A stretch of DNA of 64,000 nt from an uncultured Polaribacter sp. (GCA_943788045.1 CALSOT010000005.1:12789-76788); one strand, 5' to 3'. Counted from the stretch's first letter, positions 15,097 through 38,063 are shown. Made by a program: numbers and translations. The notes: generated from the letters alone by a model not told the origin.

Positions 15097-16740
15097 ATGA
15101 AACGAAATAAATTATATTTAGTACTAATAACTTCTATCGCTTTGCTATGCAGCTGTAGTTATGATCAATTAAATATTGAAAACCCTAATAATCTTCCTTT
15201 AAATAATTTTTGGAATTCAGAAGAGGATATTCAAAAAGGTTTAATAGCAACTTATGCAGCTCTGCAATTAGATGGATTACTTGGTGGGGCTAGCTCAACA
15301 CAACATCCTGTAAGGTCTGACATAGGAAGGCCAAACAATTGGAATGCAAACGCCCAAGGATTAAGCAGATTAGCTTTTAATGAAAACTCAGATATCGTTA
15401 AAAAGCGATGGAGAGATTGTTATATAGGTGTTTTTCGTGCTAACCAAGTGATAGCCAATTTATACACTATAGATTTAAGTGAGCAGACTAGAACTCAAAT
15501 AGAAGCAGAAGCTAAGTTTTTGAGAGGATTTTTTTACTACTCTTTGTACCGCGGTTACAATGGAGGTAGTGTAATAATACACACAACTCCACCACAGTCT
15601 AGTGAAGATTTTTATAAATCACCATCACCTGCCAGTGAGGTATTTAACTTAATCAAATCCGATTTAGAATTTGCTTACACTAATTTACCCCAGCAATATG
15701 AAAATAGTCAAGATTTAGGTAGAGCTACATGGGGTGCAGCTACAGCAATGCTCGGGAAATTACATATTAATGCCCGTGATTATGATCTCGCGAAAATGAA
15801 ATTCAAAGAAATTCTTGAAAGTAACTTGTATAGTCTTACAGCCAACATTGGAGATAATTTTGATGAAGAGCATGAAATGAATAGTGAATCAATTTTTGAA
15901 GTTGCATTTTCTACTGAATTTAGTCAAGGCACCTCTGGCAGTGCAGCAGATGGACCCCTTGGCTCAGAAGCCACATCAAGAGCAAGAACGTTAGCACCAG
16001 ATGAAGGCGGTGGCTATAGAACCATCATGCCATCATACCACATGACCATGCTATTTAAAAAAGACACTATGGATATAACAAATCCAATTAATAGCAATAG
16101 AACAGGTGCTGCTAATTACTCTATTAGAACTTCTATGTCAATAGCCATCGCAGACGACGACAATACTACAATATACCAAATACCATCAGAAAGTTTGCGA
16201 TATAATAATAATGAAGCCTCTTATTTAAAAAAATTCCAAAACTGGACACTTTTAAGAGAAAGTGATCAATCTATTTCTGGAATTAATGAACGTGTGATAA
16301 GACTCGCTGATGTTATGTTACTCTATGCAGAATGTATTCTTCAAACAGGGGGGGCATATACTGAAGCATTAGATTTAATTAATGAAATTAGATACAGGGC
16401 AGGAGTTGTGTTACTAGAGCCAGTAGATTATGATAATAGCAGTACAATGGAACACATTATGTGGGTAGAACGGCCACTTGAACTAATGTTTGAAGGACTC
16501 GACACTCGTTGGGAAGACTTGACAAGATGGGATAAAGTTCAGGAACAATATGATCGTTTGGCATTAAAAAGTTATGTTCTTGTTTCTAAAAACTTGTACG
16601 AATTTGACCCTGCTATTCACAATGAAGATAGAAAGCTCATAGAGTTTGAAAGTGCAGCAACATCTTACCAGAGTGCTATACACAACTATTTTCCAATTCC
16701 ATCAACGGAACAGAATTCGAATCCAGATCTTTTCAACTAA
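15097..16740 (+). CDS. SusD/RagB-family glycan-binding lipoprotein
   Basis: Lipoprotein signal (LLCSCSYD) and position immediately after susC-like. SusD-like features: RGFFYYSLYRGY, RLADVMLLYAEC, YFPIPSTEQNSNP. Confidence 0.85.
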   Translation: MKRNKLYLVLITSIALLCSCSYDQLNIENPNNLPLNNFWNSEEDIQKGLIATYAALQLDGLLGGASSTQHPVRSDIGRPNNWNANAQGLSRLAFNENSDIVKKRWRDCYIGVFRANQVIANLYTIDLSEQTRTQIEAEAKFLRGFFYYSLYRGYNGGSVIIHTTPPQSSEDFYKSPSPASEVFNLIKSDLEFAYTNLPQQYENSQDLGRATWGAATAMLGKLHINARDYDLAKMKFKEILESNLYSLTANIGDNFDEEHEMNSESIFEVAFSTEFSQGTSGSAADGPLGSEATSRARTLAPDEGGGYRTIMPSYHMTMLFKKDTMDITNPINSNRTGAANYSIRTSMSIAIADDDNTTIYQIPSESLRYNNNEASYLKKFQNWTLLRESDQSISGINERVIRLADVMLLYAECILQTGGAYTEALDLINEIRYRAGVVLLEPVDYDNSSTMEHIMWVERPLELMFEGLDTRWEDLTRWDKVQEQYDRLALKSYVLVSKNLYEFDPAIHNEDRKLIEFESAATSYQSAIHNYFPIPSTEQNSNPDLFN

Positions 16741-16778: not shown

Positions 16779-18266
16779 ATGAAAATACCCATCAACAAAA
16801 TAGCAATTATAAGTTTTGTATTATTTGGAGTCATTGCTTGTCAAAAGGACGATGCGATTCCGGAATACAACAATTTCTCAGATGCGCTGGCCACTAATGG
16901 AGATAAAAGAATTCAAAGAGACGATTTTGCTTCCTTTGCGGATTTATCCAAGGGTGTAACCAATAGAACTTGGACCATTCCAGAATCAGCTTCCATAATT
17001 AATCTTGAAGGAAGAGACCCCTCTCAAGTTGAACTTGTCCAAGTACAGTTTGATGAACTCGGTCAGTTTGAAGTGAATTTGAAAGATGAATTTATAGATT
17101 CTACTGTACAACTCGATACAACTTTCAATGTGACGGTTCTAGATTTCATTCAAACAAATTTTGATGTGTTGTCTATTGAATCTAGTTTTCAAGAAGAAAC
17201 GCCAACACAAATAACAATATATGAAGGCGGCACCATTACATTTCAAGACGTTTCACAAGGGAGTCCCAACCGACGAAAATGGACATTTCCAGGAGGCGAT
17301 CCGTCATCAGCGGGTGGAATTAGTATTGATTATGACAAAGATTTTCAAAATATAGCAGTCTCCTATCCAACAATAGGAACCTATGATGTTTCGCTTGTTA
17401 CTTGGCGTCAGTATCCAGAGGGAAGTAAGGATACATTGCATCTAAAAGACTACATCAATGTTATAGAAAATATTGATCCACCAACCCTAACCCAGATTAC
17501 AGAAAGTGATGCAGGCGTGATTCATTTAAATTATAATTTACCTCTAAAATTGACAGCTGATCTTGTCCCTCATTTAACCCTTACTGTAGATGGTATTAAA
17601 ACAGACATTTTGAGCGCTGCTATTAACTTAGATGACAATCGAATTGTGGACATTACTACTACTGAAAATATTAAAAGTAACTCTGTAGCGTCATTGTCCT
17701 ATGATAATTCAGAGGGAGTATTGGTGCGAGTAAACGATGTAGTTGCTGAATCCTTTACAGACCAACCTGTTGAATTGTTTGTGTCATTAAATCTTGCTAA
17801 CTCTAGCATTTACGGATTTGAAGATGGTGGAGCTGGATGGATGGCCGCCTCAGATAATGTAGGCGAAATAAGCTTTACAGACCAAAAGGCAGCCTCAGGT
17901 AATTACAGCATGCGTATGGAAGCCACAGAAAATGCCAAATGGACGAGATCTTGGAGTTGGAAAGAGGGTTCTGAATTCACCTTGAAAGCTGGGCAAAAGG
18001 TTACCATTGAATTCAAAATTTGGATAGACCCCTCTTACACCGATGGTAGTATTGGACCATGGATTACCGGCACAGAAGCACCATACCCAGGTACACAATT
18101 CTGGACTGGCATGAGCGGTTTACCTCGAGGCGAATGGATAACCATAAATAAAGAAACTGCTAAGGTATGGACAGTTACTGCGGATGGAGATTATTTTGTT
18201 GCGTTTAGATTTCAGAAAAAAGGAATTATTTACATAGACGATGTTAAAGTCTATATTCCGGAATAA
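16779..18266 (+). CDS. Surface lipoprotein with a PKD-like domain and a C-terminal CBM-like domain (candidate SGBP)
   Basis: Lipobox FGVIACQKDD. PKD-type motif ITFQDVSQGSPNRRKWTFPGGDPSS...GTYDVSLV. C-terminal beta-sandwich-like end GFEDGGAGW...YIDDVKVY. It sits in the position typical of surface glycan-binding proteins after susD. Confidence 0.55.
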   Translation: MKIPINKIAIISFVLFGVIACQKDDAIPEYNNFSDALATNGDKRIQRDDFASFADLSKGVTNRTWTIPESASIINLEGRDPSQVELVQVQFDELGQFEVNLKDEFIDSTVQLDTTFNVTVLDFIQTNFDVLSIESSFQEETPTQITIYEGGTITFQDVSQGSPNRRKWTFPGGDPSSAGGISIDYDKDFQNIAVSYPTIGTYDVSLVTWRQYPEGSKDTLHLKDYINVIENIDPPTLTQITESDAGVIHLNYNLPLKLTADLVPHLTLTVDGIKTDILSAAINLDDNRIVDITTTENIKSNSVASLSYDNSEGVLVRVNDVVAESFTDQPVELFVSLNLANSSIYGFEDGGAGWMAASDNVGEISFTDQKAASGNYSMRMEATENAKWTRSWSWKEGSEFTLKAGQKVTIEFKIWIDPSYTDGSIGPWITGTEAPYPGTQFWTGMSGLPRGEWITINKETAKVWTVTADGDYFVAFRFQKKGIIYIDDVKVYIPE

Positions 18267-18357: not shown

Positions 18358-20172
18358 GTGAATTTTAAACTTAAAATTTATATTACTACATTATTTTTGG
18401 CCATGGTTAATGGTTTGAACGCTCAGGTAAATGTCGTACTGGTTGAGCCTACTGTTCAAAAGTTTATTGGGGAGGTTTCTGAGCTAGATCGATCAAAATA
18501 TTTTAATATCCACGCCCCAGGTAAAACACCATTACTTGAATCATTTTATAAAGAATATAACGTAGAGCAATCAGGAAGAGGGTTTTACGGGCCTGGAATA
18601 GACGCCAAAAAATTGATGGGAGAAGTTGGTGTTTATCCCAAATTTAATGGTAAAAAAAGTGACAAATCGTTAGCTGTGACACGTTATGTTGCTACAGAGC
18701 ACCCGCGAAACCTATATAAAGAAGGTATCAACTTAGAGGCATCGTCAAATTGGGCAGTCAACTATTTTAAAAATACAAAAAAAAGTAACAGGCCATTATG
18801 GTATGAACCGATGAACGAACCATTTGTTCATGCTAAAGACTTTTACGAAGAAAAAGATTGGGATCCTGTTGCAGAATTACGGGTTAAAACAGAAATGTCA
18901 AAGCTATTTAGAGCTCTGGCAGAAAAAATCCATGCAGAACCAAGCTTAAAAAATATTAAGGTAATGGGTTACAGCGCTGCATGGCCATCTTTTGAATTAA
19001 AAGATTTTCAAAATTGGAAAACAAATATGGGCCTTTTTTTAGATATTGCCGGTGATCAACTCGATGCAATTTCCTACCATCTTTATGATGGGATCAATCA
19101 AGTTGGGCAGGAAAACAAGCGCTCAGGAAGTAACAACGAAGCAATAATGGATCTCATTGAAACTTACAGTCACCAGCGTTGGGGATTTATTAAACCTCAT
19201 GCGATTACAGAATATGGTGGAATCGAGGTTTCTGAATTTTCCTTAATTCGAAATATGCAATCAATTCGATCTCAAAACGCCATGATTTTTGGTTTGCTGG
19301 ACCGTGAAGATCGACTAGAAATTTCCATCCCATTCACAACAGATAATGCCAAATGGCACATTAATAAAGCAAATAATTATTTACCATATAAAGCCGTTCT
19401 ATGGCGTGCAGAAAATATGGGTGTGCCAAAAAATCAAATTACAGGTTGGGTATATACTAATCGAATTCAATTTTATGAACTTTGGAAAGGGGTCAAAGGA
19501 AAAAGAGTTTTCGTTTCAACATCAAACCCTGATATTCAAGTCCAAGCCTTTTTGGATGAAAAAAAAATATTTGTTGCACTAAATAACTTGGACGATAATG
19601 CTCAACAAGTTGCATTAGATCTTAGCTCTATAAAATCTAACGTTAAAGATATATTGGTAAAGTCATTAACTATTTACAAGGAGGATTTTCCTCGATATTA
19701 TGAAAAAACTGTCAGCAGTATCCCTGAAGTATTTTCTATAGATTCTGCAGAGACAATAGTTCTAGAATTTAATTTAAAAAATAGTATGACATTCAAAAAC
19801 CAAATTAAATCCAAACGCTACTACAGTAGTAATTACTTAGTCCCAATTGAAGCTAATAATGAGTTGATATTTGAATTTAATAATGTTGCCCTTGGAGTTG
19901 GTTTTGCCAAACTAAGTATGAGTATAGGTAGGGGGCATGATTTGTCAAAAACTCCTGAAGTTTTTGTTAATGGCAGTAAAGTTGAAGTTCCTTTGAACTG
20001 GAAAGGGTATGACCAAGCTAATAGAAAAAAATTCTTTGGGGCTATAGAAATTCCTGTTCCCATAGAATTAATTAAACAAAATAATTCCGTTCGTGTTACT
20101 TTTCCAGATACTGGTGGGCATTTAAGTTCTCTAATTTTAGATGTGGAAAAAATTATTGATACTAATAATTGA
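18358..20172 (+). CDS. Secreted (beta/alpha)8-type glycoside hydrolase with C-terminal beta-sandwich region, family unassigned
   Basis: Signal peptide NFKLKIYITTLFLAMVNGLNAQ (apparent GTG start). Clan GH-A-like acid/base motif WYEPMNEPF and nucleophile-like motif AITEYGG. Roughly 60% identical by eye to the catalytic core of the next gene. Confidence 0.6.
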   Translation: MNFKLKIYITTLFLAMVNGLNAQVNVVLVEPTVQKFIGEVSELDRSKYFNIHAPGKTPLLESFYKEYNVEQSGRGFYGPGIDAKKLMGEVGVYPKFNGKKSDKSLAVTRYVATEHPRNLYKEGINLEASSNWAVNYFKNTKKSNRPLWYEPMNEPFVHAKDFYEEKDWDPVAELRVKTEMSKLFRALAEKIHAEPSLKNIKVMGYSAAWPSFELKDFQNWKTNMGLFLDIAGDQLDAISYHLYDGINQVGQENKRSGSNNEAIMDLIETYSHQRWGFIKPHAITEYGGIEVSEFSLIRNMQSIRSQNAMIFGLLDREDRLEISIPFTTDNAKWHINKANNYLPYKAVLWRAENMGVPKNQITGWVYTNRIQFYELWKGVKGKRVFVSTSNPDIQVQAFLDEKKIFVALNNLDDNAQQVALDLSSIKSNVKDILVKSLTIYKEDFPRYYEKTVSSIPEVFSIDSAETIVLEFNLKNSMTFKNQIKSKRYYSSNYLVPIEANNELIFEFNNVALGVGFAKLSMSIGRGHDLSKTPEVFVNGSKVEVPLNWKGYDQANRKKFFGAIEIPVPIELIKQNNSVRVTFPDTGGHLSSLILDVEKIIDTNN

Positions 20173-20182
20173 AAATATAGAT

Positions 20183-23100
20183 ATGTTAAGAATTCTTCAA
20201 GTTATTCAAATAGTAGTTTTTATCATTTGTGTTAATTCGATTCAAGGGCAAAATGTCAATTTTATATCCGATGAGGGGTTTACTAACGGAGCGCTTTCCG
20301 GTCAAACTAATTGGGATGCCCAATCAGGATGGTCAGTTGAAGCAGCCACAGGGGTAGTAACGACAACGCAGTGGTGGCAAAAAGCGGCCTGGGGACAGCC
20401 ATTTTCCCTTTCTGAAGTTGGCGATCAAATAACGTTTAGAGTAGATTTAAATCTTACTGGAACTCTAGCTGCAACAAACAATCCATTAATCAGAATTGGC
20501 TTTATTGCTTCAAGTGATGTTAACGCCAATCTATCAACAATGTTAAATACTGTTTATTTATCTAGCACAAATGGTGGTCTACTTCAACTTCGTGACAATA
20601 CGAATAGTAATCCCTTAAGTTTAGGGACTTCTTTAACAATTTTGGAATGTCAAGGAAGTGAAACAACAGATGATTTGGCGCTTTTGGTAACCCTTACACT
20701 TGGCATAGATGCAGCATCTTCAACAATATCTGCAAAGCTTCTTAATGTAACTGATGGCACTTCATCAAGTATTGGCCACTACAATGGAATAAAGACGGAT
20801 GTATTTAATGCTTCAACAAGCAGTATTTACGGATTTTTTCAAGCTCAATCTTTTACAAGTGGTAGTGATCTCACAGCCATAAATGTAAAAAAAGTTAGCA
20901 TGATTTCAAAAGTAGATATCTTTCCAAAAGTCAAGCGAGAAATTGGAGGGATTTCAACTTTAGATCGTAGTAAATATTTTAATATTCATGCAGGTGTTAA
21001 TGATGTAGAACCGGATTTTTATACAGATTATAATGTGAGTCAAAGTGGACGACAATTTTATGGACCAGGTGGATTTAACGTGCTCGACACTATTAGCCCA
21101 GGAGCTGTTGGCACAGGAACTGTTGGCACATACCCAGAATCAAGTCCTGAAAATAATACAACATTGCGCGAAGTTAGAAGATATGTAGCCACTGATCATC
21201 CTTATCACGTCTATGAAGAAGGGCTTGATCCTGTAGCATTTGCTGATTGGGCGGTAGAGTATTATAAAAATTTTGCAACTACTGACTCAAGACCTGAATA
21301 TTACGAGCCAATGAACGAGCCTTTCGTTCATGCAAGAGACTATTATGATGAACCGGACTTTGATACTGATGCAGAGGCAAGGGTAAAGCTAGAAATGGCT
21401 CAATTTTTTAAGCATGTTGCGCAAAAAATTCATGCCGCTCCAGAATTAGATAATATGAAAATACTTGGTTATTCTTCGGCATTTCCATCTTTTGAAATAA
21501 CTGATTTTTCTAATTGGAATCAAAACATGAAAATGTTTATGGATGAAGCTGGGGCTGATGTTGATATTTTTTCAACACATCTTTACGATGGAATTAATCA
21601 GGTTGGGCAAGAAACCCGAAGATCTGGCAGTAATATGGAAGCCATTCTAGATTTGATTGAAACCTATAGTTATGATAAGTGGGGGCTTATTAAACCACAT
21701 GGCATTACTGAATTTGGAGGAATTGTAAATGGAGATTATACTGATATCAATAACGTTCAGTCTATACGTTCTCAAAATTCGATACTTTTTGGACTTTTGG
21801 AACGAACCGATCGAATGGAAATTGCTATCCCATTTACTACTGGAAAATCCACATGGCATATCAAACAAGACACTATTGAAATGCCATATCATATGCCATA
21901 TAAAGCTATACTATACAAGCCAATCCCAATTGGGGTGCCTTTAGACCAAGTTACAGGTTGGGAATATACCAACAGAATTCATTTTTATGAATTATGGAAA
22001 GATGTTGCTGGAGAGAGAGTATTGATTCGTTCAGGTAATAAGGACGTTCTCGCTCAGGCATTTGCAAATAACGATAAATTATATGTGGCCTTTAACAATT
22101 TAGATGATTTTGATCAGTCCGTTAACCTAAAATTACATGGAAACCTTCCTGAAATTTCGAATGTTGTAATTAAATCTTTAATCGTTAATCCAGGTGTCGA
22201 TGCAGTTTATACAACTCAATCTTTTACAGAATTACAGGAAAGCTACACACTCAAAAAAAATGAAACGGTAGTAATAGAATATACTTTTTCGGAGTCACTT
22301 GTTTTTGATAAAACCATCGAGTCTGTAAATTATTATAGTAATAACCATTTGCAGGAAATCCAGGCAAATACCCCAATTGTTTATAATTTCAATGGTGTGA
22401 CCCTAGGAAATTCTGGATATGCAAAACTTTCTATGAGTATTGGTCGAACACATGATAAATCTAAATCACCCACTGTTTTATTTAATAATATATCAATTCC
22501 TGTACCAATTAATTGGAAAGGGTATGACCAAGCATCAAGAGCTACTTTTTTTGGAACTATAGAAATCTCCGTTCCAATAGGTCTCCTTAACGAAAATAAT
22601 ACAGTTTCAATTACGTTTGCAGATACTGGAGGGCATTTGAGCTCTTTAATACTCAATGCAGAAACATCAGACGCGAATGTTTTATCAGATATTACTTGGG
22701 ATGGTAGTGATAGTTCAGAGTGGGCAGCTGCTGCAAACTGGGATATTAACACAGTTCCATCTGCAACTGACAATGTTATTATTCCTGATGTTGCTACCGC
22801 ACCAATTATTGGAGCAACAACTGGAGCTGAAATTAATAATTTAACAATTACAGAACCAGATGGTATTAATATCACTGCAGGCGGTTCTTTAATAGTAAAT
22901 GGTTCTTCTTCAGGAAATATAACTTATAATAGAACTTTAGACACAGACAACTGGTATTTAGTTTCATCACCTATTGTGGGAGAAATGTATGATGATGCTT
23001 ATGTAACTGATAATGGTATTGATTTAGGAGCAGACTCTAACAGAGGAATTGCATCTTATATAACCAGTGATGACACTTGGGATTATATGCAGGCAGGGGA

Positions 23101-24187
23101 AACTGCTACTTTTTTAGCTGGAATAGGATATTCGATTAAAAGAAGTTCTGTCGGAGATGTTTCTTTTACAGGTACATTAAATGTTGCTGATACTGGAGTA
23201 GATGTAGTTCTCGATGCTACTGGAAATCGTTATAACCTTTTAGGAAATCCTTATTCGTCTCACATTGCTAGTGCAACTTTTTTGACTAATGAAGCTGCTG
23301 TTTCAGAAACACAAACCCTGTGGGTATGGAATCAAGTAACAGGTGCTAGTGGAGCCTATGAAGTAAAAACGTTAGCAGATGCTATGGTAATAGCTCCTGC
23401 ACAAGGATTTTTTATAAAAGCAAATGCGGCTGGAGGCACATTTAACTTTGCTGAATCTAACCAAGCTGGCAGTGGAGGGACCTTTCAAAGAACTGAAGCT
23501 AGACCAGAGATGCATCTTACACTATCTAATCAATCAGATGTAAGAGAGGCTAAAATCTATTATATAGAAAACATGACCACTGGATTTGATGTTGGTTATG
23601 AAGGAGAATTATTTAATGGAGTTGCTAATCCTCTAGATATTTACACGCATTTAGTAGCTGATAGTGAAGGGAAAAATTATCAAGTGCAATCCTTACCAGA
23701 TAATGATTTTGAGGACACGATTATTCCTTTAGGAATTAATGCAATTTCTGGAAGTTCTATTTCTATAGAAGCTTCAAAAAATAACTTCCCTGAAGGAATG
23801 AATATTTATCTAGAAGACAAACAAGACAATAGTTTTACTCTTTTAGAGTCAGATGTTAATTTTAACACTACACTTGAGAATGATCTTTCTGGAATTGGAC
23901 GTTTTTACTTGCATACTACTTCAAGTACTATGAGTACCAATGATTTGGCAACAAACAATAATTTGAGTATTTACTCCTATAATAGAGAAACCCTTCGAGT
24001 TGTGGGTATTCAAAAAGGAGTTGCAAATATTAGTATTTACAATTTACTTGGACAAAAAGTGTTAAGTTCTTCATTTCAAGGAAATGGAGTGAATGATATT
24101 TCATTACCATCTATAATTAATGGAATTTACATCGCAAAAATCACTTCAGAAAACAGAACAACTAACAGGAAAATAATCTTAGAATAA
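20183..24187 (+). CDS. Large T9SS-sorted multidomain glycoside hydrolase (N-domain, GH core, ~430-aa module, CTD)
   Basis: Signal peptide MLRILQVIQIVVFIICVNSIQGQ. The N-terminal ~250-aa domain is shared with the genes at 25832 and 28395. The GH core (YYEPMNEPF, GITEFGG) is paralogous to 18358..20172. The C-terminal module is shared with 25832..28139. A T9SS type-A CTD-like tail ends the protein (ISIYNLLGQKVL...NGIYIAKITSENRTTNRKIILE). Confidence 0.75.
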   Translation: MLRILQVIQIVVFIICVNSIQGQNVNFISDEGFTNGALSGQTNWDAQSGWSVEAATGVVTTTQWWQKAAWGQPFSLSEVGDQITFRVDLNLTGTLAATNNPLIRIGFIASSDVNANLSTMLNTVYLSSTNGGLLQLRDNTNSNPLSLGTSLTILECQGSETTDDLALLVTLTLGIDAASSTISAKLLNVTDGTSSSIGHYNGIKTDVFNASTSSIYGFFQAQSFTSGSDLTAINVKKVSMISKVDIFPKVKREIGGISTLDRSKYFNIHAGVNDVEPDFYTDYNVSQSGRQFYGPGGFNVLDTISPGAVGTGTVGTYPESSPENNTTLREVRRYVATDHPYHVYEEGLDPVAFADWAVEYYKNFATTDSRPEYYEPMNEPFVHARDYYDEPDFDTDAEARVKLEMAQFFKHVAQKIHAAPELDNMKILGYSSAFPSFEITDFSNWNQNMKMFMDEAGADVDIFSTHLYDGINQVGQETRRSGSNMEAILDLIETYSYDKWGLIKPHGITEFGGIVNGDYTDINNVQSIRSQNSILFGLLERTDRMEIAIPFTTGKSTWHIKQDTIEMPYHMPYKAILYKPIPIGVPLDQVTGWEYTNRIHFYELWKDVAGERVLIRSGNKDVLAQAFANNDKLYVAFNNLDDFDQSVNLKLHGNLPEISNVVIKSLIVNPGVDAVYTTQSFTELQESYTLKKNETVVIEYTFSESLVFDKTIESVNYYSNNHLQEIQANTPIVYNFNGVTLGNSGYAKLSMSIGRTHDKSKSPTVLFNNISIPVPINWKGYDQASRATFFGTIEISVPIGLLNENNTVSITFADTGGHLSSLILNAETSDANVLSDITWDGSDSSEWAAAANWDINTVPSATDNVIIPDVATAPIIGATTGAEINNLTITEPDGINITAGGSLIVNGSSSGNITYNRTLDTDNWYLVSSPIVGEMYDDAYVTDNGIDLGADSNRGIASYITSDDTWDYMQAGETATFLAGIGYSIKRSSVGDVSFTGTLNVADTGVDVVLDATGNRYNLLGNPYSSHIASATFLTNEAAVSETQTLWVWNQVTGASGAYEVKTLADAMVIAPAQGFFIKANAAGGTFNFAESNQAGSGGTFQRTEARPEMHLTLSNQSDVREAKIYYIENMTTGFDVGYEGELFNGVANPLDIYTHLVADSEGKNYQVQSLPDNDFEDTIIPLGINAISGSSISIEASKNNFPEGMNIYLEDKQDNSFTLLESDVNFNTTLENDLSGIGRFYLHTTSSTMSTNDLATNNNLSIYSYNRETLRVVGIQKGVANISIYNLLGQKVLSSSFQGNGVNDISLPSIINGIYIAKITSENRTTNRKIILE

Positions 24188-24314
24188 ATAACGAGAACTT
24201 ACAAAGAATAATATTTATAAAAACGAAACGGTAGTGATGAAATACACTTTTATGGTAAAATTGTTAACGCTACAATTCAGCCAATCATCAAAAACTAAGA
24301 AAATTTTCAAAAAG

Positions 24315-25721
24315 ATGTTTTTAAAATCTTTCTATGCTTTTACCTACATTTTTTTTAGTGTACAAATTGTATGTGCTCAAAAGTACGTGTCTAAAATTTT
24401 CGAAAATGGAAATACCATTTGTCTCCTAGGAGACAGCATTACCCACGGAGGGCAGTTTCATGAATTCCTACAACTCTATTACGCCACTCGCTATCCAAAT
24501 CTAAAACTCACTTTTATAAATTGTGGAATCGCTGGAGATAATGCCGAAGGTATGATCTACAGATTAGATAAAGACGTCCTTATTCATGAGCCAAGTCATG
24601 TGTTTTTAATGACCGGTATGAATGATGTAATACGGACACTTTATTTTGAAGGTAAAGCTTCGGATGAAATTATAGAAAAGCGAAAAATTGCACTGTTTGA
24701 ATACAAAAAAAACACAGACGTTTTAGCAGAAAAATTTGAAGCATCAGGAATATCTCCAATCTATCTTACCCCATCAATTTACGATCAATACTCGAAAATT
24801 GAAAAAGAAAATGACTTAGGTTGCAATGATGCTCTTATTGAATGTTCTGACCACATTAAATCAATTGCATATCAGTATGATGCAACCGTTGTTGATTTAA
24901 ATACCCCAATGAAGAACATTATGGAGCGAGAACTACAAAACGATTCCTTATTTACAATTGTTGGTAAGGACCGAGTACACCCAGAAACAACAGGACATTT
25001 TATTATGTTTTATGAAATTTTATCAACGATAGAATCACCAAGTCTTGTAGCTCAAATTTCAATTGACCTGCATCAAAAACCAAGTGTTCAAACAAAAAAC
25101 TGCGTTGTTGAGAAATTTCAAATTTCAAATGAAACTATTACTTTTAATTGTTTAGAAAACAGCCTACCATTCCCTATTAATGAAGCTATAGAAAAAGCTA
25201 TTTCTTTGGTTCCTTTTCAAAACAATTTCAACAAAGAAATACTTCAAATTAAAGGGCTAAAAGAGGGTGAATATGATCTTTTTATTCAGGAAAAATTAAT
25301 AAATACTTTTTCTAGTAAGGAGCTAAATGAAGGTGTCAATCTTTCAAATCAATTGAATAGCCCGCAATTACAACAAGCCAAAAAAATTACGAAACTTTGT
25401 AAAGAGTATCGCAAGACAGGCTATCAATTACGAGCAGTTCCGCTTATTGAGTTCAAATACCTTCGCGACTACCGAGGTGCTAACAATCTTTTGGGTAAAC
25501 AAAAGCATTTAGAAAAAAAGTTGAAAATAATTGAAGGAAAACCGTTTTACAATTATATCAAAAGGAGTATTGATGTGTATTTTGAAACACTTCCTAAACA
25601 GGACTCATTAAAAAATAGACTACAATTAATTGAAAACTCTATTTATGAAGAAAATAAACCGACTCAACTAAAATGGCGTCTTGTAAAAAACATGAAACAG
25701 AGTTCTTATCAAAAAATGTAG
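24315..25721 (+). CDS. SGNH/GDSL-family hydrolase (putative carbohydrate esterase) with C-terminal extension
   Basis: Signal peptide MFLKSFYAFTYIFFSVQIVCAQ. SGNH blocks ICLLGDSITHGG, MTGMNDV and DRVHP. Confidence 0.7.
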   Translation: MFLKSFYAFTYIFFSVQIVCAQKYVSKIFENGNTICLLGDSITHGGQFHEFLQLYYATRYPNLKLTFINCGIAGDNAEGMIYRLDKDVLIHEPSHVFLMTGMNDVIRTLYFEGKASDEIIEKRKIALFEYKKNTDVLAEKFEASGISPIYLTPSIYDQYSKIEKENDLGCNDALIECSDHIKSIAYQYDATVVDLNTPMKNIMERELQNDSLFTIVGKDRVHPETTGHFIMFYEILSTIESPSLVAQISIDLHQKPSVQTKNCVVEKFQISNETITFNCLENSLPFPINEAIEKAISLVPFQNNFNKEILQIKGLKEGEYDLFIQEKLINTFSSKELNEGVNLSNQLNSPQLQQAKKITKLCKEYRKTGYQLRAVPLIEFKYLRDYRGANNLLGKQKHLEKKLKIIEGKPFYNYIKRSIDVYFETLPKQDSLKNRLQLIENSIYEENKPTQLKWRLVKNMKQSSYQKM

Positions 25722-25831
25722 TATAAATCAGAATATTTAAGATGTTTTTTACATATGTAATATAAATCAGAACATATATGGAACTTCTTTAACTGCGTCA
25801 TTCTTAATTTTATGTGACAAACAAACAAATT

Positions 25832-28139
25832 ATGAAAAAAATTTACACACTATTATTTTTTACCATAACCACAAGTTTTTTAACTGCTCAAACTACAGCA
25901 AATTTTTCTACTGCAGAAGGGTATACCAATGGTTTACTTAGCAACAACACAAACTGGGGTGGCCAGTTTATTTATGTTAACACGACCAATGAAAGTGTAT
26001 CCACTCAGTCCAACGGCGCTGAGGCTTATTGGGGGCAGTCTCAATCAATAACAGAGGGTGAAACAATTACTTTTGAAGTTGATATGAAATTTGGAGGCGA
26101 TCTTGGATATATAGCTAATACATTTATTGCTCAAATTGGTTTTAATGCTGGAGGGACTACTTCTTCAGGGGGTAGCGACAGACAATTTATTTACTCTAAA
26201 AGCACTGACTAACGGTAAACTAAAAATTGAAAGGCGTGCGGGGGGTAACCTATCATCCACACCTACTTATGTTGAGGGCTGGGATATTGATACTTGGAAA
26301 AATGATGATTTGACTGTTAAAGTATCTTTTTTATTGGGTAATAGTGCATCAAGCTCTACAGTAACCGTAAAGCTAATCAATAATACAACTGGAGAATATA
26401 CTGATGCTGCATTTGACCAAAATGGGGTTGTTAGTACAAGTGTTTACGATGGAGCTGTTAATGGTAATTTATATGGTTTTTTTAGAACAGTAACTCTTCA
26501 AGATGGTGATGGTGATACTACCGAAAGTTTTGCGGTATCACGCGTAAAATTGGTAAACGAAGATACATTGTTTCCAAACACTTTCTATAATACTAGTGGA
26601 GACAATCAGTGGGGAACTGCAACTAATTGGGAATCGGGTAATGTGCCAACATCATATACTGATGTTAATATTTTAAATGGTCAATCAATTCAAGCTGGAG
26701 TTTCTACAACAGCTTTAGCCAATAGTATTGTTGTTAATAGTGGAGGTAGTCTAACTATAGATCAAACATCATCTGTAACAGTTTCAGATGATTTCAACAA
26801 CAATGGAACTGTTACATTAAACTCAGGCGGTTCTTTAATAGTAAATGGTACTTCTTCAGGAAACGTAACTTACAACAGAGATTTAGCCACTACTAATTGG
26901 TATTTAGTTTCATCACCTGTTGTGGGAGAAACGTATGATGATGCTTATGTGACTGCCAATGGTATAGCTTCAGGGACACAAAACACGAACTCTAGAGGAA
27001 TTGCACCATATGTAACTACTGATGATTCTTGGGATTATATGCTGGCAGGAGAAACTGCCACTTTTTCTGCTGGAACAGGATATTCCGTTAAGAGAAGTTC
27101 TACCGGAGATGTTTCTTTTACAGGAACACTAAATGTTGATAATGCCGGTGTTGATGTTGTTCTTTCTTCTGATGGAAATCGTTTTAATCTTTTAGGAAAT
27201 CCTTACACATCACATATTGCAAGTGCAACTTTTTTAGCTAATGAAGGTGCTGTTTCAGAAACACAAACACTCTGGGTTTGGGATCAAGGTTCAGGTTCTG
27301 GAGCTTATGAAGTAAAAACACTTGCAGATGCTATGGTAATCGCTCCTGCTCAAGGATTTTTTGTAAAAGCAAATGCCGCTGGCGGTACCTTTAACTTTGC
27401 TGAATCTAACCAAGCTAGTAGTGGAGGTTCTTTTCAAAGAACTGATACTAGACCAGAGATATATTTAACAATCTCTGATCAAACAGATGCTAGAGAAGCT
27501 AAAATATATTATATAGAAGACATGACCACTGGATTTGATGTGGGTTATGAGGGAGAATTATTTAATGGGGTCTCTAATCCGTTGGCGATTTACACCCATT
27601 TGGTTGCTGATAGTGAAGGAAAGAATTACCAAGTACAATCTTTACCTCCCAACAACTATGAAAACATGATTGTTCCTTTAGGAATTAATGCTGAAGCTGG
27701 AACTGCCATTACCATAAATGCATCTGCAAACAACTTCCCTTCAGATATAAACATTTATCTAGAAGACAAACAAGACAATAGTTTTACTTTGTTAGAAGCA
27801 GATTCAAACTTTAGCTTTACACCAGAGAATAATCTTGACGGTATTGGACGTTTTTACTTGCATACCACATCTGGAGCTTTAAGTTCGGATGACTTCGCTA
27901 TAAACAATAACATCAGTATGTATACCTCTAGTAATGATAATATAAGAATTGTTGGTATACAGAATGGTAACGCTACTGTTCAATTGTATACTATTCTAGG
28001 GAAAGAGATCTTAAAAAACTCTTTTACAGGAAGCGGTATCAATGACATCAAAGTAAATGATATCCCTAGAGGCATTTATATTGTAAAACTTACTACAGAA
28101 AACGGGACGCTAAACAGAAAAATCATCATTCAATACTAG
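25832..28139 (+). pseudogene. T9SS-sorted non-catalytic paralog (N-domain, shared module, CTD), frameshifted in a G5 run
   Basis: Two overlapping ORFs (25814..26212 and 26127..28139) form one gene by homology to the paralogs. Removing one G from GGGGG at 26168-26172 gives ...TSSGVATDNLFTLKALTNGKLKI..., aligning with ...NTVYLSSTNGGLLQL... of the 20183 gene. CTD tail VQLYTILGKEIL...GIYIVKLTTENGTLNRKIIIQY. Confidence 0.7.
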
Positions 28140-28153
28140 AAATCTATAAACAC

Positions 28154-28324
28154 ATGGAACATCAAAAAAAAAAACAAAAAGAAGAGATTTCAAGAAAAAA
28201 GGCTCTTAAAAAAATTGGAAACTATGGTAAATATGCGGCTTTAACTGCCATAGGTACTTATACGTTATTAAATCCTAAAAAAGCACAAGCAATGAGTCCT
28301 GCAGATCCCGGCAGCGGATTTTAA
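28154..28324 (+). CDS. Small 56-aa ORF with a basic N-terminus, one hydrophobic segment and a short C-terminal peptide (hypothetical)
   Basis: My own translation is MEHQKKKQKEEISRKKALKKIGNYGKYAALTAIGTYTLLNPKKAQAMSPADPGSGF. It is below the track length cutoff and fills the gap between two T9SS paralogs. It contains an A11 run (28164-28174). The coding status is unproven. Confidence 0.3.
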   Translation: MEHQKKKQKEEISRKKALKKIGNYGKYAALTAIGTYTLLNPKKAQAMSPADPGSGF

Positions 28325-28394
28325 TTAGCTATTTAACACGGTGTCTAATGAATAACTTTTAAATTCACTAATTTTAAAATTAAATACAAAAATT

Positions 28395-29414
28395 ATGAAA
28401 AAAATTTACATGCTAATATTTTTTACCATAACCACAAGTTTTTTAACTGCTCAAACTACAGTAAACTTTACTGAAGATGAGGGGTTTACGTCCGGAGTAT
28501 TATACAATCAAACAAATTGGGACTCTCAGTTTACCGGAACCACATGGACTGTTAATCCATCGGCAGCAGGTATGACTTTAGTTGGCGCTAATCCTGTCAA
28601 CCCTGGTGATGGTGAATACCAAAGGGCAGCTTGGGAGCAGGGTTTTTCAGTCTCTGGTCCTGGTGAGTCAATTACCTTTAGAGTTGATCTTAAGTTTTTA
28701 GGTACTATTGGTACCAGTAACAACCCACTTATGAAAATTGGTTTTAGTGATGGTGCTGATGTAAGTGGAGGTGATACCCCCTTCCCAACAAACAATGGTG
28801 TTTTTTTAAGAACGGCCAATTTTGAGGGCCAACTACAACTTGGAAATAATGGGAATGGTGGTCCATTATCTCCAAATGCATCCCTTCCAATAGCCGATTG
28901 CCAAGCTGTCGGTGAGTCAGATGATTTGGCAGTACTAGTTACTTTGACGCTTGGCGCTGATGCGACAAGTTCGACAATTAGTGCAATATTAAAAAACTTA
29001 ACAGATGGAACAAAAACTGATATTGGTTCATATGAAAGTATAGAACCTTTGTTATTTACGGCAGCAACAAGTAATATTTACGGTTATTTTCAGAGTTCAA
29101 GTTTTAAAACTACAGCAGGTGGCGGAGCATTAACAGAAATTCAAGTTAGTTCGGTAACTATGACAGCAGGAAATGTACTAAATACAGATTCATATTCCAT
29201 TTCTAATTTTAACTTTTCTCAAAACCCTGTTGAGGATACCTTGCAGCTGAGAGGGGTCACTACAGGAAGTAAAATTTCTGTTTATAACGTTACTGGAGCT
29301 TTAGTAAATAATTATGTTTATGATGGTAATCAATTAAACTTAGGACATCTAAGTTCTGGAGTTTACTTTATGCAAGTGCCGGGTTTTACAACTCAAAAAC
29401 TAATAAAGAAATAA
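28395..29414 (+). CDS. T9SS-sorted protein made of the shared N-domain plus CTD only
   Basis: The signal peptide MKKIYMLIFFTITTSFLTAQT is nearly identical to that of 25832. The N-domain is homologous to the N-terminus of 20183 (DDLAVLVTLTLGADATSSTISAILKNLTDGT vs DDLALLVTLTLGIDAASSTISAKLLNVTDGT). CTD tail KISVYNVTGALV...GVYFMQV. Confidence 0.7.
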   Translation: MKKIYMLIFFTITTSFLTAQTTVNFTEDEGFTSGVLYNQTNWDSQFTGTTWTVNPSAAGMTLVGANPVNPGDGEYQRAAWEQGFSVSGPGESITFRVDLKFLGTIGTSNNPLMKIGFSDGADVSGGDTPFPTNNGVFLRTANFEGQLQLGNNGNGGPLSPNASLPIADCQAVGESDDLAVLVTLTLGADATSSTISAILKNLTDGTKTDIGSYESIEPLLFTAATSNIYGYFQSSSFKTTAGGGALTEIQVSSVTMTAGNVLNTDSYSISNFNFSQNPVEDTLQLRGVTTGSKISVYNVTGALVNNYVYDGNQLNLGHLSSGVYFMQVPGFTTQKLIKK

Positions 29415-29501: not shown

Positions 29502-30413
29502 ATGAAACTATGTATCAGCTTTTGTATGTGTGTTTTTATCTGGGGAAATGCCCAAGACAAAATAGTTCTTTATCCGGAGGGCATTCCATGTAACAGCAGT
29601 GAAACGACTATTGAACCAGTAAGAATAAAAAAAATAAACCACCAAATAGCTAACCCTCAATTGTGGTATTATGCAGTAGCCGTTTCTAAAAAGGAAGTTC
29701 CTGCAATTCTGGTAATTCCAGGAGGTGGCTACAAAAACTTGGCTTTTGAACACGAGGGCATTAAGGTAGCAAAATGGTTAAATCAAATAGGTATTAGTGC
29801 ATTTGTACTAATGTATCGAAGCCCATATTGGGAGCCTAAACCCTGTAAAAGTAAAGTTGCTTTGTTAGATGCGCAGCGTGCTATGCGTGTAATTCGTCAA
29901 AGGGCAAGCCAATGGAATATAGAGGCGTCTAAAATTGGTGTCATGGGATTTTCAGCGGGCGGACATCTAGCAGCATCACTTTCTACTCAGTTTGATCTTG
30001 GTAAAGCAGCTAAAGAAAACCAACTCGAAAAATTAAGTTCTCGCCCCAATTTTAGTATACTCATATATCCTGTTATTAGTATGCGAAAGGAGCTCACCCA
30101 TATGGGTTCTCGAAAGAGTCTATTGGGGGGGAATCCAACCAAAGACCAAATAATTCTTTATTCAAATGAGTTACAAGTCAAATCGGACACACCTACAACA
30201 ATACTGATTCACGCCAAGGACGATAGTGTAGTCATCCCCAAAAATAGTATACTCTACCACGAGGCGTTACAGGAAAATAAAATTCCTTCAACACTTCACC
30301 TTATGGAGCAAGGCGGTCATGGTTTTGGAATATCCTCTACAAATAAGTCAACACAATTATGGTTAGCACTTGCAAAAAATTGGTTGATTCAACTTGGTAT
30401 AATCGCTGATTAA
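29502..30413 (+). CDS. Alpha/beta-hydrolase fold esterase
   Basis: Signal peptide, oxyanion-region IPGGGY, nucleophile elbow GFSAGGHLA, later HAKDDSVV and GGHGF. Confidence 0.7.
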   Translation: MKLCISFCMCVFIWGNAQDKIVLYPEGIPCNSSETTIEPVRIKKINHQIANPQLWYYAVAVSKKEVPAILVIPGGGYKNLAFEHEGIKVAKWLNQIGISAFVLMYRSPYWEPKPCKSKVALLDAQRAMRVIRQRASQWNIEASKIGVMGFSAGGHLAASLSTQFDLGKAAKENQLEKLSSRPNFSILIYPVISMRKELTHMGSRKSLLGGNPTKDQIILYSNELQVKSDTPTTILIHAKDDSVVIPKNSILYHEALQENKIPSTLHLMEQGGHGFGISSTNKSTQLWLALAKNWLIQLGIIAD

Positions 30414-31945
30414 TCAAACTTTAGTTTACTGGTTTTCTTATAAGAATCTCCTACAATAGCTTCAAATGCTCTCATCATCTCATCTCTTTTTTCGGGCATC
30501 GTTTCTGCCAGGTTATTTTGCTGTGATGTATCATTTTCTAAATTATAAAGTTGAAATTCTTCGCCATTCCCAGTTTCTATTCCTTTAGTTAAAAACATTT
30601 TAGGGCCAGGATAAGGAGGGATTAGCACCCAATCGCCCTGACGATAGGCTGTTCTGGAAGTCGCTTCTAAAATAACATCACTTCTTCCTTTGACACTTTT
30701 TCCTAATAATAAATCCAAATGATTTTCACTATCAAGATTATCTACGGGTTGTTTAATCAGATTTGATAGTGAGGATAACCAATCCACCTGCGAAATAATT
30801 TCGGTGGTTACACCTGGTTCAATATGTCCTTTCCAATAGGTAATGAAAGGGACTCTAGTACCCGCTTCATACAAACTGTATTTTCCTCCTCTTAAATTGC
30901 CTGTAGGGGTATGATTCCCTAATTTTTCGATAGCATCGTCCTCATAGCCATCATCCAAAACCGGTCCGTTGTCACTTGATAAGAAAATTAAAGTATTTTC
31001 CATAATACCTTCTTGTTTAAGTGTTTTAATGAGTTCACCAATACACCAATCCGCTTCAGCAATTACATCGCCTCTGGGACCCATTCCTGTAGCACCCACA
31101 AAGCGCGGATGAGGTGTTCTTGGTACATGAGGTTGTTGCAATCCATAGTAGAGAAAGAACGGCTGATCTTTTTCTTTTTTAATATAAGTTTTCACCTCAT
31201 CCAGAAATATATCTGCCATATCTTCATCAATCCATCTAGCAGACTGTCCACCTTTCATATGTCCAATACGAGGAACACCATTAACGATCGTTCTGTTGTG
31301 TTGTGGGTCGCCTTTCATTTTTAATAAATGTGGAGAGTTTTCTCCAGTGGGTTCACCAGAAAAATTATTCTTATAATCGATTTCAATAGGATCCTCAGAA
31401 TCATGGTTAAAAACATACCCATTTTTTATATAAACCGTTGGTACTCTGTCTTGAGTTGCTGCCATGATATAGCTAAAGTCAAACCCAACTTGGTTGGGGC
31501 CAGGTGATATATACGAATTCCAATCCACATTACCAGTTCCAAGACCTAAATGCCACTTTCCAATAACAGCAGTTTTATAACCATGATTGCGTAACATTTT
31601 GGGAATTGTAGTTTGAGTTGTGTCTATGAGAAGTGGTGCTGTTCCTGGAAGGATTTTTGCGTCTCTATTTCGCCATGGATATTGACCTGTGAGAAGTGCA
31701 TATCTACTTGGTGTACAGGTTGCAGAAGTGGCGTAACCATTGGTGAACTTAAGACCATTATTTGCCAAGAAATCCATATTTGGCGTTTCCAATTCAGTGG
31801 CGCCATATGCACTGATATCTCCATAACCTAAATCATCTAAATAGATAAAAATGATATTAGGAGTAGAATCCACTTTAACTTTTTTTTCTTTGTGATTACA
31901 AGCACTTACCAGTACAAAAGCAATCATGATTAATAAATGTTTCAT
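30410..31945 (-). CDS. S1 (formylglycine-dependent) sulfatase
   Basis: Lipoprotein-like signal. PNIIFIYLDDLGYGD and the active-site motif SATCTPSRYALLTGQ (CxPxR). Confidence 0.85.
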   Translation of the reverse strand: MKHLLIMIAFVLVSACNHKEKKVKVDSTPNIIFIYLDDLGYGDISAYGATELETPNMDFLANNGLKFTNGYATSATCTPSRYALLTGQYPWRNRDAKILPGTAPLLIDTTQTTIPKMLRNHGYKTAVIGKWHLGLGTGNVDWNSYISPGPNQVGFDFSYIMAATQDRVPTVYIKNGYVFNHDSEDPIEIDYKNNFSGEPTGENSPHLLKMKGDPQHNRTIVNGVPRIGHMKGGQSARWIDEDMADIFLDEVKTYIKKEKDQPFFLYYGLQQPHVPRTPHPRFVGATGMGPRGDVIAEADWCIGELIKTLKQEGIMENTLIFLSSDNGPVLDDGYEDDAIEKLGNHTPTGNLRGGKYSLYEAGTRVPFITYWKGHIEPGVTTEIISQVDWLSSLSNLIKQPVDNLDSENHLDLLLGKSVKGRSDVILEATSRTAYRQGDWVLIPPYPGPKMFLTKGIETGNGEEFQLYNLENDTSQQNNLAETMPEKRDEMMRAFEAIVGDSYKKTSKLKFD

Positions 31946-33066: not shown

Positions 33067-33452
33067 TTCTTATTTGATGTTTTCAATCCAAATAAAGCAA
33101 TATATATATAAAACACAAAGCAAAAAAACCAAAATGCTTCACTGATTGCAGCTGGATAAAACATCAGTGCACCTGAAGAATACAACCCAAGTCCTATTAA
33201 AATACCTACTTTATAGGAATACTTTCGCATAAATAGTGCTGCAGGGATTGCCATACAAAAGTAGCCTCCATAAAAGGCCATTTGAACCCATGCGGCTTGA
33301 GAATTAGATAATTCCAATACTTTTTTAAAGGCTTGTACCATGGGATCTGTAACTGCATTGGCAAAACCCCATAAAGCAAATAAAGAGGTTATTAGAATAA
33401 ATGGTATTATAACCTTTTTTGTTACTACCGGCATTGATACTGAATGTTTCAT
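33063..33452 (-). pseudogene. fucP: L-fucose:H+ symporter (FucP-type MFS) N-terminal fragment
   Basis: The 129 aa align by eye with the first ~125 residues of E. coli FucP (IIPFxLxxSLFxLWxxAN...QxAFYxGYFxxxIPAxxxMxKxSYKxGIxxGLxLY). The remaining ~300 aa are absent. The stop overlaps the start of the esterase gene. Confidence 0.75.
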
Positions 33453-33455
33453 AAT

Positions 33456-34772: not shown

Positions 34773-34790
34773 AATATGGTATCTATATGA

Positions 34791-35936: not shown

Positions 35937-35942
35937 ATGTTT

Positions 35943-37261: not shown

Positions 37262-37267
37262 TTATTT

Positions 37268-38053: not shown

Positions 38054-38063
38054 ATATCTAAAT

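Follow-up and report, generated by a model that had tools for sequence, protein, structure and literature searches.

The 64,000-nucleotide stretch of DNA analysed here (the window) derives from an uncultured Polaribacter sp. (GCA_943788045.1, CALSOT010000005.1:12789-76788), to which exact matches of ClpP, SOD and FBPase also assign it, and carries, between positions 18358 and 29414, four genes that share protein modules (all coordinates are plus strand unless stated otherwise). The genes, called G1 (18358-20172), G2 (20183-24187), G3 (25832-28139) and G4 (28395-29414), variously combine a catalytic core of glycoside hydrolase family 86 (GH86), a legume-lectin-like N-terminal domain (the N-domain), a module of approximately 430 aa homologous to the adhesins RemA and RemZ, and a type IX secretion system (T9SS) C-terminal sorting domain (CTD). 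On balance, and with some reserve, we favour the reading that the set constitutes the exported, outward-facing tier of a polysaccharide utilization locus (PUL) that is conserved among marine Flavobacteriaceae. We hold the annotations with high confidence, and the predicted binding and anchoring roles with moderate to low confidence.

Module sharing among the four genes

Pairwise BLASTP and tblastn maps were produced among the four genes. A first-pass annotation of this DNA had described them as open reading frames (ORFs) with common modules, and this was borne out by the alignments: G1 matched residues 239-827 of G2 (51% identity over 590 aa), residues 839-1334 of G2 matched the module and CTD of G3 (64% over 517 aa), the G2 N-domain matched G4 (44.5% over 256 aa), and the two halves of the G3 N-domain matched G4 at 47% and 32% identity. 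E-values reached 0 at best and were approximately 1e-4 at worst, for the weakest N-domain fragment; the sharing of modules is real and well beyond chance. A similarity restricted to signal peptides and CTDs was ruled out, as the alignments span 220-590 residues of internal domains. Contrary to the first-pass annotation, the genes are not all adjacent: G2 and G3 are separated by a gene for a GDSL-family esterase (24234-25721), and G3 and G4 by an ORF of 56 aa (28154-28324); nor is 25832-28139 a single ORF in the window, where it is divided into two overlapping ORFs by one extra base near 26194. An antisense ORF of 164 aa inside G2 (22381-22875, minus strand) was unsupported and is most likely spurious.

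The GH86 enzymes

G1 (18358-20172) comprises a GH86 core only, preceded by a Sec signal of the signal peptidase I (SPI) type and without a CTD. In G2 (1334 aa), a signal peptide is followed by an N-domain (20255-20920), a GH86 core (about 20897-22663), a RemA-like module (22697-23983) and a T9SS type A CTD (23984-24187), as delimited by BLASTP and tblastn, Pfam and TIGR04183 matches, alignment with PDB entry 4aw7 and the match to RemA. The Pfam models Porphyrn_cat_1 and BPA_C matched far above their cut-offs in both genes, and the best solved relative was the porphyranase BpGH86A of Bacteroides plebeius (4aw7; E-values of 1.3e-136 for G1 and 6.6e-128 for the G2 core), followed by GH86 agarase structures (8h97, 5ta0 and 5ta1), all matches being beta-agarases or beta-porphyranases. 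The motifs EPMNEPFVHA and ITEYGG/ITEFGG of G1/G2 aligned with EPLNEPFVHA and ISEFGG of 4aw7; the Glu of NEP and the Glu of the xxE(F/Y)GG strand we take to be the catalytic acid/base and nucleophile, respectively, as in BpGH86A and in keeping with clan GH-A. G1 and the G2 core were accordingly classed as GH86 on sequence grounds, and endo-beta-agarase or porphyranase activity is predicted for both. Profile searches proposed in the first-pass annotation thus gave the hydrolase core a family, and returned none in Pfam or NCBIfam for the N-domain or the module.

Neither TIGR04183 nor PF18962 matched G1, and the protein is probably periplasmic. RefSeq gives the identical protein (WP_297805435.1) the name 'T9SS C-terminal target domain-containing protein', which looks like a mis-annotation given that both CTD models fail on G1.

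The G1 and G2 cores have the three-domain layout (TIM barrel, Porphyrn_cat_1, BPA_C) of BpGH86A (4aw7) and of the GH86 agarases (8h97; 5ta0/5ta1), from which G2 differs by its additional lectin-like N-domain, RemA-type region and T9SS CTD; the locus in the window also differs by its three esterases and two GH29 enzymes, and its substrate may not be classical porphyran. Multi-modular carbohydrate-active enzymes (CAZymes) exported by the T9SS, such as ChiA of Flavobacterium johnsoniae, the cellulases of 'Ca. Paraporphyromonas polyenzymogenes' (PMC5831590) and the PUL enzymes of Chitinophaga pinensis (PMC10449523), likewise join catalytic and binding modules to a CTD and are encoded in or near SusC/D loci. 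By comparison, the putative binding module in the window belongs to no catalogued family, and the accessory modules recur, with no enzyme attached, in a second and a third gene. Only one protein spanning the junction between GH86 and the module was found, a fragment from a related strain (P0001, 92% identity), and a fragment on a divergent metagenome contig (L017) ends before the junction, so that the G2 architecture is known from this species alone.

A rare lectin-like domain recurrently joined to GH86

G4 (28395-29414, 339 aa) presents the N-domain in its simplest setting, with a signal peptide, the N-domain (28455-29189) and a type A CTD (29220-29414), as resolved by BLASTP, TIGR04183 and an AlphaFold2 (AF2) model; its orthologues occupy the equivalent position in L005-L007 and L010-L012. 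The model of the G4 N-domain (predicted local distance difference test score, pLDDT, 86.5; predicted template-modelling score, pTM, 0.89) is a jelly-roll, and the best 50 Foldseek matches in the PDB were all legume lectins or relatives of the arcelin/alpha-amylase-inhibitor type (E-values down to 1.7e-8, template-modelling (TM) scores 0.55-0.58). Against legume (L-type) lectins such as soybean agglutinin (4d69) the shared jelly-roll was called at a Foldseek probability of 1.00; sequence identity over the matches was only 11-16%.

By sequence, the N-domain matched nothing in Pfam or NCBIfam at E ≤ 0.1, its profile matched no PDB sequence even at an E-value of 10, and no precomputed Pfam match, from a release that includes PF27624, fell on it. 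The statement in the first-pass annotation that the two modules carry no motif assignable to a known family therefore stands with respect to profile libraries, and does not hold beyond them, as structure prediction with Foldseek, which had been recommended there, gave the N-domain a legume-lectin-like fold and homology search linked the module to RemA/RemZ. The N-domain is rare: an exhaustive profile search recovered it in 209 of 1.84 billion representative clusters, and a word-index search gave 37 matches.

Fusion of the N-domain to GH86 was found in three topologies. It is N-terminal to GH86 in P0161 (a 72-member cluster in Tara/JGI/ENA data), C-terminal to GH86 in P0188 (L013:10001-12736, where it precedes the CTD) and in P0203 of Pontiella agarivorans, an agar-degrading member of the Kiritimatiellota, and nested within the GH86 catalytic domain after approximately 100 residues in P0205 (L013:1-1274). 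P0205 additionally carries PF27624 (Porph_assoc); identity of that family with the N-domain was ruled out, as it is reported only on P0205 and not on the N-domain-bearing G2, G4 and P0188. Other partners include a beta-helix, DUF5060/PKD (Coraliomargarita) and PhoD (a metagenome-assembled genome (MAG) of Opitutaceae), and the domain occurs in three phyla. Three copies each are present in P0158, P0159 and P0160. Among 150 N-domain representatives, 26 carried a T9SS CTD and 29 a PEP-CTERM, which makes a lectin plus a sorting tag a common minimal form.

As a discrete fold borne on carbohydrate-active catalytic modules, the N-domain has the architecture of a carbohydrate-binding module (CBM), and its recurrent fusion to GH86, the strongest functional clue, fits a glycan-binding role. 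Its rarity, the lack of Pfam and PDB sequence matches, the modelled fold, the three GH86 topologies and the spread over three phyla together make it a candidate new CBM that may be tied to GH86 substrates.

The RemA/RemZ-type module

The module of approximately 430 aa, for which neither Pfam nor NCBIfam holds a family, is not private to this PUL, as might have been supposed from its first description, and matches the C-terminal part of adhesins of the RemA/RemZ type. Residues 9-503 of a module-plus-CTD query aligned with residues 891-1434 of F. johnsoniae RemA (phmmer, E 1.5e-11), and a profile built from 43 module sequences retrieved RemA (776-1435, E 4.8e-31) and RemZ (849-1113, E 8.8e-20) from the PDB sequences. 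At least 696 relatives were found, chiefly in Polaribacter and elsewhere among the Flavobacteriaceae. All 43 aligned members have the module immediately upstream of the CTD (40 of the 43 pass the Pfam CTD model), and the heads in front of it are diverse (LTD, GEVED, beta-helix, RicinB, CBM4_9 and the N-domain).

An AlphaFold model of module and CTD (pLDDT 85, pTM 0.82) was all-beta and had approximately three subdomains ahead of the CTD. Foldseek returned no global PDB match for this model, only the CTD and generic Ig/FN3-like chains, and the function of the module can consequently not be read from its fold. Its place beside the CTD and its homology to the base of an adhesin point to a stalk or retention role, and by this analogy the RemA-type region is most likely a cell-proximal stalk or retention module that keeps the head on the surface.

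The plan of G3 (lectin head, RemA-type region, type A CTD) is that of F. johnsoniae RemA (Fjoh_0808) and RemZ (Fjoh_0803), both T9SS type A substrates. The head in the window differs in being of the concanavalin A (ConA)/legume-lectin-like type and not the RemA lectin domain, the head of G2 includes a glycoside hydrolase, and the genes in the window form part of a PUL. RemA itself is a lectin that is mobile on the cell surface; surface retention, movement and gliding of the module proteins in the window are at most predictions by homology.

T9SS sorting signals

TIGR04183, which has a curated cut-off of 23 bits, scored 38.4, 45.8 and 33.0 bits in G2, G3 and G4, respectively, and the modelled CTD superposed on that of RemA (8gl6_D) with a TM-score of 0.81. 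Sec signals of the forms …SIQG/QNVNF and …LTAQ/TT(A/V)NF, and C-termini reading …NRKIILE, …NRKIIIQY and …TQKLIKK, were recognized in the three proteins, the signal peptides and the C-terminal Lys having been read from the sequence by eye; a role for the conserved Lys near the C-terminus of type A cargo (K1110 in RemZ) is documented in PMC10994853. G2, G3 and G4 are thus predicted to be T9SS type A cargo. Of the endo-hydrolase with non-catalytic paralogs that had been envisaged, what can be recognized, as far as sequence goes, is one GH86 predicted to be exported and two predicted exported non-catalytic proteins that reuse its accessory domains.

The role proposed for G3 and G4 resembles that of SusE/SusF-like surface glycan-binding proteins (SGBPs), which are likewise non-catalytic, PUL-encoded, outward-facing glycan binders. 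SGBPs are lipoproteins encoded beside SusD, whereas G3 and G4 have SPI-type signals without a Cys in the cleavage region, carry T9SS CTDs, and are encoded downstream of the enzymes, 9-12 kb from SusD. The locus in the window moreover keeps a SusE-position lipoprotein of its own (16779-18266).

Conservation of the gene arrangement

A scan for the N-domain, using one genome per species and five close sequences as query, identified eight loci (L005-L012). Seven of these, from six genomes or MAGs, carry one and the same PUL order, namely SusC, SusD, a SusE-like protein, GH86, an N-domain + GH86 + CTD protein of approximately 911 aa, a GDSL esterase, an N-domain + CTD protein, an esterase and a sulfatase; the carriers are a Polaribacter single-cell genome and MAGs of Formosa, 'Ulvibacter'/AB_MB380 and other Flavobacteriaceae. 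The basic order of GH86, lectin-GH86-CTD, GDSL and lectin-CTD is thus conserved in several genera; the arrangement, which the first-pass annotation did not recognize as a described PUL component, is not unique. The N-domain accompanies GH86 in all seven syntenic loci, and neither the RemA-type module nor a G3 gene was found in any of them. Most related PULs run without the module and G3, which are therefore dispensable for the core pathway; the core design is common and conserved, and the stalked versions are a second, rarer variant.

Other variants were also seen. In L013/L014, the lectin follows GH86 in the CTD-bearing enzyme, and a GH86 with a nested lectin is present in addition. L017 shows a gene ending in module + CTD, then GDSL, N-domain + module + CTD, a small ORF and N-domain + CTD, with modules approximately 50-54% identical to those in the window. 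Polaribacter porphyrae GCA_020532745.1 (L016, VRMK01000007.1, 8001-11605) has a long and a short gene whose head is unrelated to the N-domain: a 744-aa head + module + CTD protein, then a small ORF, then a head + CTD protein of 339 aa, the two heads being 47% identical over 227 aa. In this PUL the pair is flanked by SusC/D and by a P450/ferredoxin/reductase cluster that includes an esterase, an alcohol dehydrogenase and a sulfatase.

Frameshift and recombination in G3

G3 (25832-28139) consists in the window of a signal peptide and two ORFs, 25814/25832-26212 and 26127-28139, recognized by frame analysis and the TIGR04183 match given above. Its N-domain (25892-26552) is broken by the insertion of 1 nt near 26194, as seen by frame comparison, and is followed by a RemA-like module (26586-27926, by RemA-type homology) and a type A CTD (27930-28139, TIGR04183). 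At the break, the window reads TTTACTCTAAAAGC, L002 reads TTTAC-TTAAAAGC and L001 reads TTTA-TCTAAAAGC; the extra base falls where sister assemblies diverge into two in-frame variants (TAC-TTA versus TA-TCTA). In 99.7%-identical contigs G3 is an intact ORF of 768 aa, found in at least six assemblies of the population, including L002; L001, a related contig, has G2 as well as G3 in split form. The polymorphic site and the intact G3 elsewhere indicate a consensus error or a rare variant rather than gene decay, and a pseudogene was dismissed as the main reading of G3.

The term 'combinatorial' applied to the gene set in its first description was apt, as heads and modules are shuffled between strains and between paralogs. 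The modules of G2 and G3 are 82% identical at the DNA level over 1050 bp. L003, whose flanks are >99% identical to the window, has a G3 gene (7568-9745) with a different N-domain allele, in which the first approximately 250 nt of the module are 93-96% identical to G2 (22697-22936) and the remainder 99-100% identical to G3 of the window; this mosaic, a product of recombination or gene conversion between paralogs, puts the breakpoint close to the first boundary between subdomains. The N-domain of the G3-like gene in L017 is 78% identical to that of window G4, not to that of G3. The signal-peptide DNA in the first 75 nt of G3 and G4 (25827-25906 and 28390-28469) is 94% identical, compared with 32-47% identity between the N-domain proteins, and represents a local conversion tract or a recombination anchor.

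A small gene downstream of stand-alone module genes

The 56-aa ORF directly after G3 (28154-28324), MEHQKKKQKEEISRKKALKKIGNYGKYAALTAIGTYTLLNPKKAQAMSPADPGSGF, is conserved and bears a strong coding signature. Homologues of 53-60 aa follow stand-alone module genes in L015 (10212-10373), L016 (10259-10441), L017 (5310-5489) and L018-L097, and at least 449 metagenome loci were counted. A module + CTD gene ends 8-48 nt upstream of the small ORF in 58-59 of the 59 testable loci; no small ORF was found in 10 PUL loci without the module, nor after G2. Codon-position entropies over 78 distinct sequences were 0.37, 0.12 and 1.18 bits, the third position being approximately ten times the second, a pattern that identifies the ORF as a real coding gene. 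It matched no Pfam or NCBIfam family, and RefSeq lists it as 'hypothetical protein' (WP_297804846.1, WP_105017238.1). The general form is …ISRKxALKKIGNYGKYAALTALGTYxILNPxKAQA followed by approximately 10 aa ending in PGxGF (PGSGF in the window), that is, a basic N-terminus, S/T-R-K-x-A-L-K-K, a short hydrophobic stretch and AQA, a shape similar to that of a Tat/Sec-type signal followed by a very short mature part.

Proposed role and alternative explanations

In the interpretation favoured here, G2 would be exported by Sec and the T9SS, its lectin domain would guide it to the galactan, and its GH86 core would cut the polymer outside the cell, with the resulting oligosaccharides imported via SusC/D. 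G1, which has neither a CTD nor a lipobox, would act in periplasmic breakdown alongside the sulfatase, GH29, GH2 and esterases that the locus encodes, and G4 would be a T9SS-exported glycan binder conserved across genera. In this lineage, the RemA/RemZ-type region of approximately 430 aa would have been grafted between the GH86 core and the CTD of G2, and G3 (lectin, RemA-type region and CTD, then the small ORF) would have been gained, the RemA-type stalk holding G2 and G3 at the surface. The outcome would be a stalked enzyme alongside one lectin that comes in two lengths, long (stalked) and short.

Several points weigh against this interpretation. The module and G3 are dispensable and absent from most related PULs, and binding, activity and localization are predictions for all of G1-G4. 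The T9SS genes of the organism lie outside the 64-kb window. A lectin fold by itself is no proof of sugar binding, as the ConA-like superfamily also includes enzymes and protein-binding domains. The module has no global PDB match and its putative stalk role is argued from position. For RemA, secretion and anchoring behaviour is ascribed to the CTD and not to the upstream region, and the protein exists in anchored as well as released form (PMC12618676). The presence of three esterases and two GH29 enzymes is, in addition, atypical of classical porphyran, and the true substrate may be a microalgal galactan.

Of the other explanations considered, the one we regard as least improbable, though still unlikely, is that G3 and perhaps G4 are RemA-type adhesins for algal surfaces, particles or the cell's own exopolysaccharide, possibly coupled to gliding, and do not serve SusC/D feeding; their location in a PUL would then reflect co-regulation with a matching substrate. 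Homology of the module to RemA/RemZ over approximately 540 residues agrees with this, as do the occurrence of module proteins outside PULs (for example P0013, amid hypothetical genes) and the many kinds of lectins and CBMs among the heads. A G4-type lectin + CTD gene is, however, at a fixed PUL position in 7/7 GH86 loci (six genomes or MAGs), and the fusion of the N-domain to GH86 in three topologies ties it to the substrate of the enzyme and not to general adhesion; adhesion and nutrient roles can also coexist. Legume lectins oligomerise via their beta-sheets, and the N-domain could instead be a protein-protein assembly domain by which G2, G3 and G4 form a heteromeric, mini-cellulosome-like surface complex. 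One domain type does recur in three co-encoded exported proteins, its nearest structural matches are oligomeric lectins, and proteins with multiple copies exist (P0158, P0159 and P0160), but we hold this to be improbable: the N-domains in the window are only 32-47% identical and their alleles are swapped between strains, which fits diversified ligand recognition better than a conserved interface, and the domain is present in many organisms by itself next to a sorting tag, and in other phyla fused to unrelated enzymes. It is very improbable that the set results incidentally from local duplication and decay, with G3 a pseudogene and no coordinated function. The frameshift of G3 in the window and the split G2 and G3 in L001 could be so explained; the intact 768-aa G3 in at least six assemblies of the population, the position of the extra base at a two-variant site (a consensus error or a rare variant), the retention of the three-gene design in the divergent L017 at approximately 50% identity, and the conservation of the modules across hundreds of clusters all contradict it.

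Beyond the outward-facing tier of the PUL, a wider joint proposal can be put forward tentatively, at less than even odds: the RemA-type region with its obligate small ORF may be an undescribed T9SS surface-display cassette of marine Flavobacteriaceae, with heads interchangeable by recombination and with stalkless 'head + CTD' twins, and the N-domain may be a new CBM family for agar/porphyran-type galactans. As part of the same tentative proposal, the cassette would in this lineage also carry a whole GH86 enzyme. T9SS multi-modular CAZymes, RemA-type adhesins and GH86 PULs are already known. New are the uncatalogued lectin-like family linked to GH86, the conserved lectin gene, predicted to be exported, in this PUL type, the enzyme carried by a RemA-type region, the heads paired in long and short versions and the module-linked small ORF. 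If the N-domain binds sugar, it would provide a new carbohydrate-binding family and a probe for the substrate of the locus. Should the RemA-type region retain its head on the surface, G2 would be an enzyme on an adhesin chassis, and long/short lectin pairs would provide layered capture via the T9SS instead of lipoprotein anchoring. The small ORF, an unannotated partner of every stand-alone module gene examined, is relevant to T9SS and gliding research. As GH29-GH86 loci are listed among those expressed by abundant Flavobacteriaceae in North Sea phytoplankton blooms (PMC10108472), the predicted exported tier would bear on the capture and cutting of marine galactans.

The surrounding locus

The four genes are embedded in a locus with the defining content of a PUL, a SusC/SusD pair co-located with CAZymes and a regulator. 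The SusC-like (11963-15076) and SusD-like (15097-16740) ORFs have orthologues of 68-95% identity at the equivalent position in L005-L012, and Pfam Plug and SusD matches were obtained on the orthologous SusC and SusD genes of L013 and L016. The SusE-position protein (16779-18266), kept at this position in relatives, has a lipoprotein-type signal (…GVIAC, the lipobox being a by-eye reading), a C-terminal beta-sandwich and weak Pfam matches to PKD, DUF7601 and Mann_GBD; as a lipoprotein encoded beside SusD it has the properties of SusE/F-like proteins and is a candidate for the canonical SGBP of the locus. Besides SusC/D, the locus holds a hybrid two-component system (HTCS) regulator, GH2, two GH29, an S1_15-like sulfatase and three esterases. 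Upstream lie GH29 (3006-4439, Pfam), GH2 (5282-7621, Pfam; PDB 5t98, E 8e-285) and the HTCS regulator (7635-11840, minus strand, Pfam), the nearest structure of the GH2, 5t98, being that of a GH2 from the agarose locus of Bacteroides uniformis.

The GDSL-family esterase between G2 and G3 (24234-25721, 495 aa; Pfam Lipase_GDSL at residues 62-261) has orthologues of 55-71% identity in L005-L012 and is present at the equivalent position in L013 and L017. Orthologue alignments suggest a start near 24315 and not 24234, and the C-terminal half of this protein (approximately 230 aa) had no family match; in every related locus the gene is kept between the CTD-bearing GH86 and the lectin genes. Two downstream partners are kept in synteny, a BD-FAE/acetyl-esterase-like protein (29502-30413; Pfam, NCBIfam) and an S1_15-like sulfatase (30410-31945, minus strand; Pfam, NCBIfam, and PDB 7ozc, 6s20 and 9bas). 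They are followed on the minus strand (31963-39734; Pfam, synteny) by a CE2 esterase, the second GH29, a flavin mononucleotide (FMN)-dependent dehydrogenase, a fumarylacetoacetate (FAA)-hydrolase-family protein, a short-chain dehydrogenase/reductase and an altronate/galactarate-dehydratase-family protein, a group with predicted functions in deoxy-/L-sugar catabolism and sugar-acid pathways.

The gene content points to a sulfated, esterified galactan of the agar/porphyran type as the probable target, and the three esterases and two GH29 suggest a decorated galactan instead of textbook porphyran. Fucoidan, named as a possible ligand in the first-pass annotation, is unsupported, since GH86 is the only endo-enzyme family and galactans are indicated by the matches of the GH2 and the sulfatase; side groups of fucose or L-galactose are conceivable in view of the GH29 genes and the L-sugar pathway. 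A study of North Sea blooms lists 'putative porphyran (GH29-GH86)' PULs among the expressed loci (Sidhu et al. 2023, PMC10108472), a PUL type that matches the one in the window, and MAGs with designations of that series (AB_MB380, L011, and AA_MB54, L006) were recovered in the N-domain scan and are syntenic with the window. The part of that publication drawn upon sorts the PUL by CAZyme families; neither the lectin domain and the lectin-CTD gene nor the RemA-type module and the small ORF are mentioned there.

A tyrosine integrase (619-1776, minus strand) and tRNA-Asp (2116-2190) lie on one side of the PUL region, and a zinc-ribbon recombinase-like remnant (40257-40670) and tRNA-Leu and tRNA-Gly (41065-41242) on the other, which together (619-2190 and 40257-41242) suggest a genomic island. 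For SusC, SusD and HTCS of the window, identity to MAG AB_MB380 is 90-95%; for the FMN-dependent dehydrogenase it is 98-99% to AA_MB54 and the Formosa MAG, for the FAA hydrolase 97.5% to the Formosa MAG only, and for G1 only approximately 86-87% to all of L006, L007 and L011. The nearest relatives thus differ by PUL segment, a hint of segment exchange between genera.

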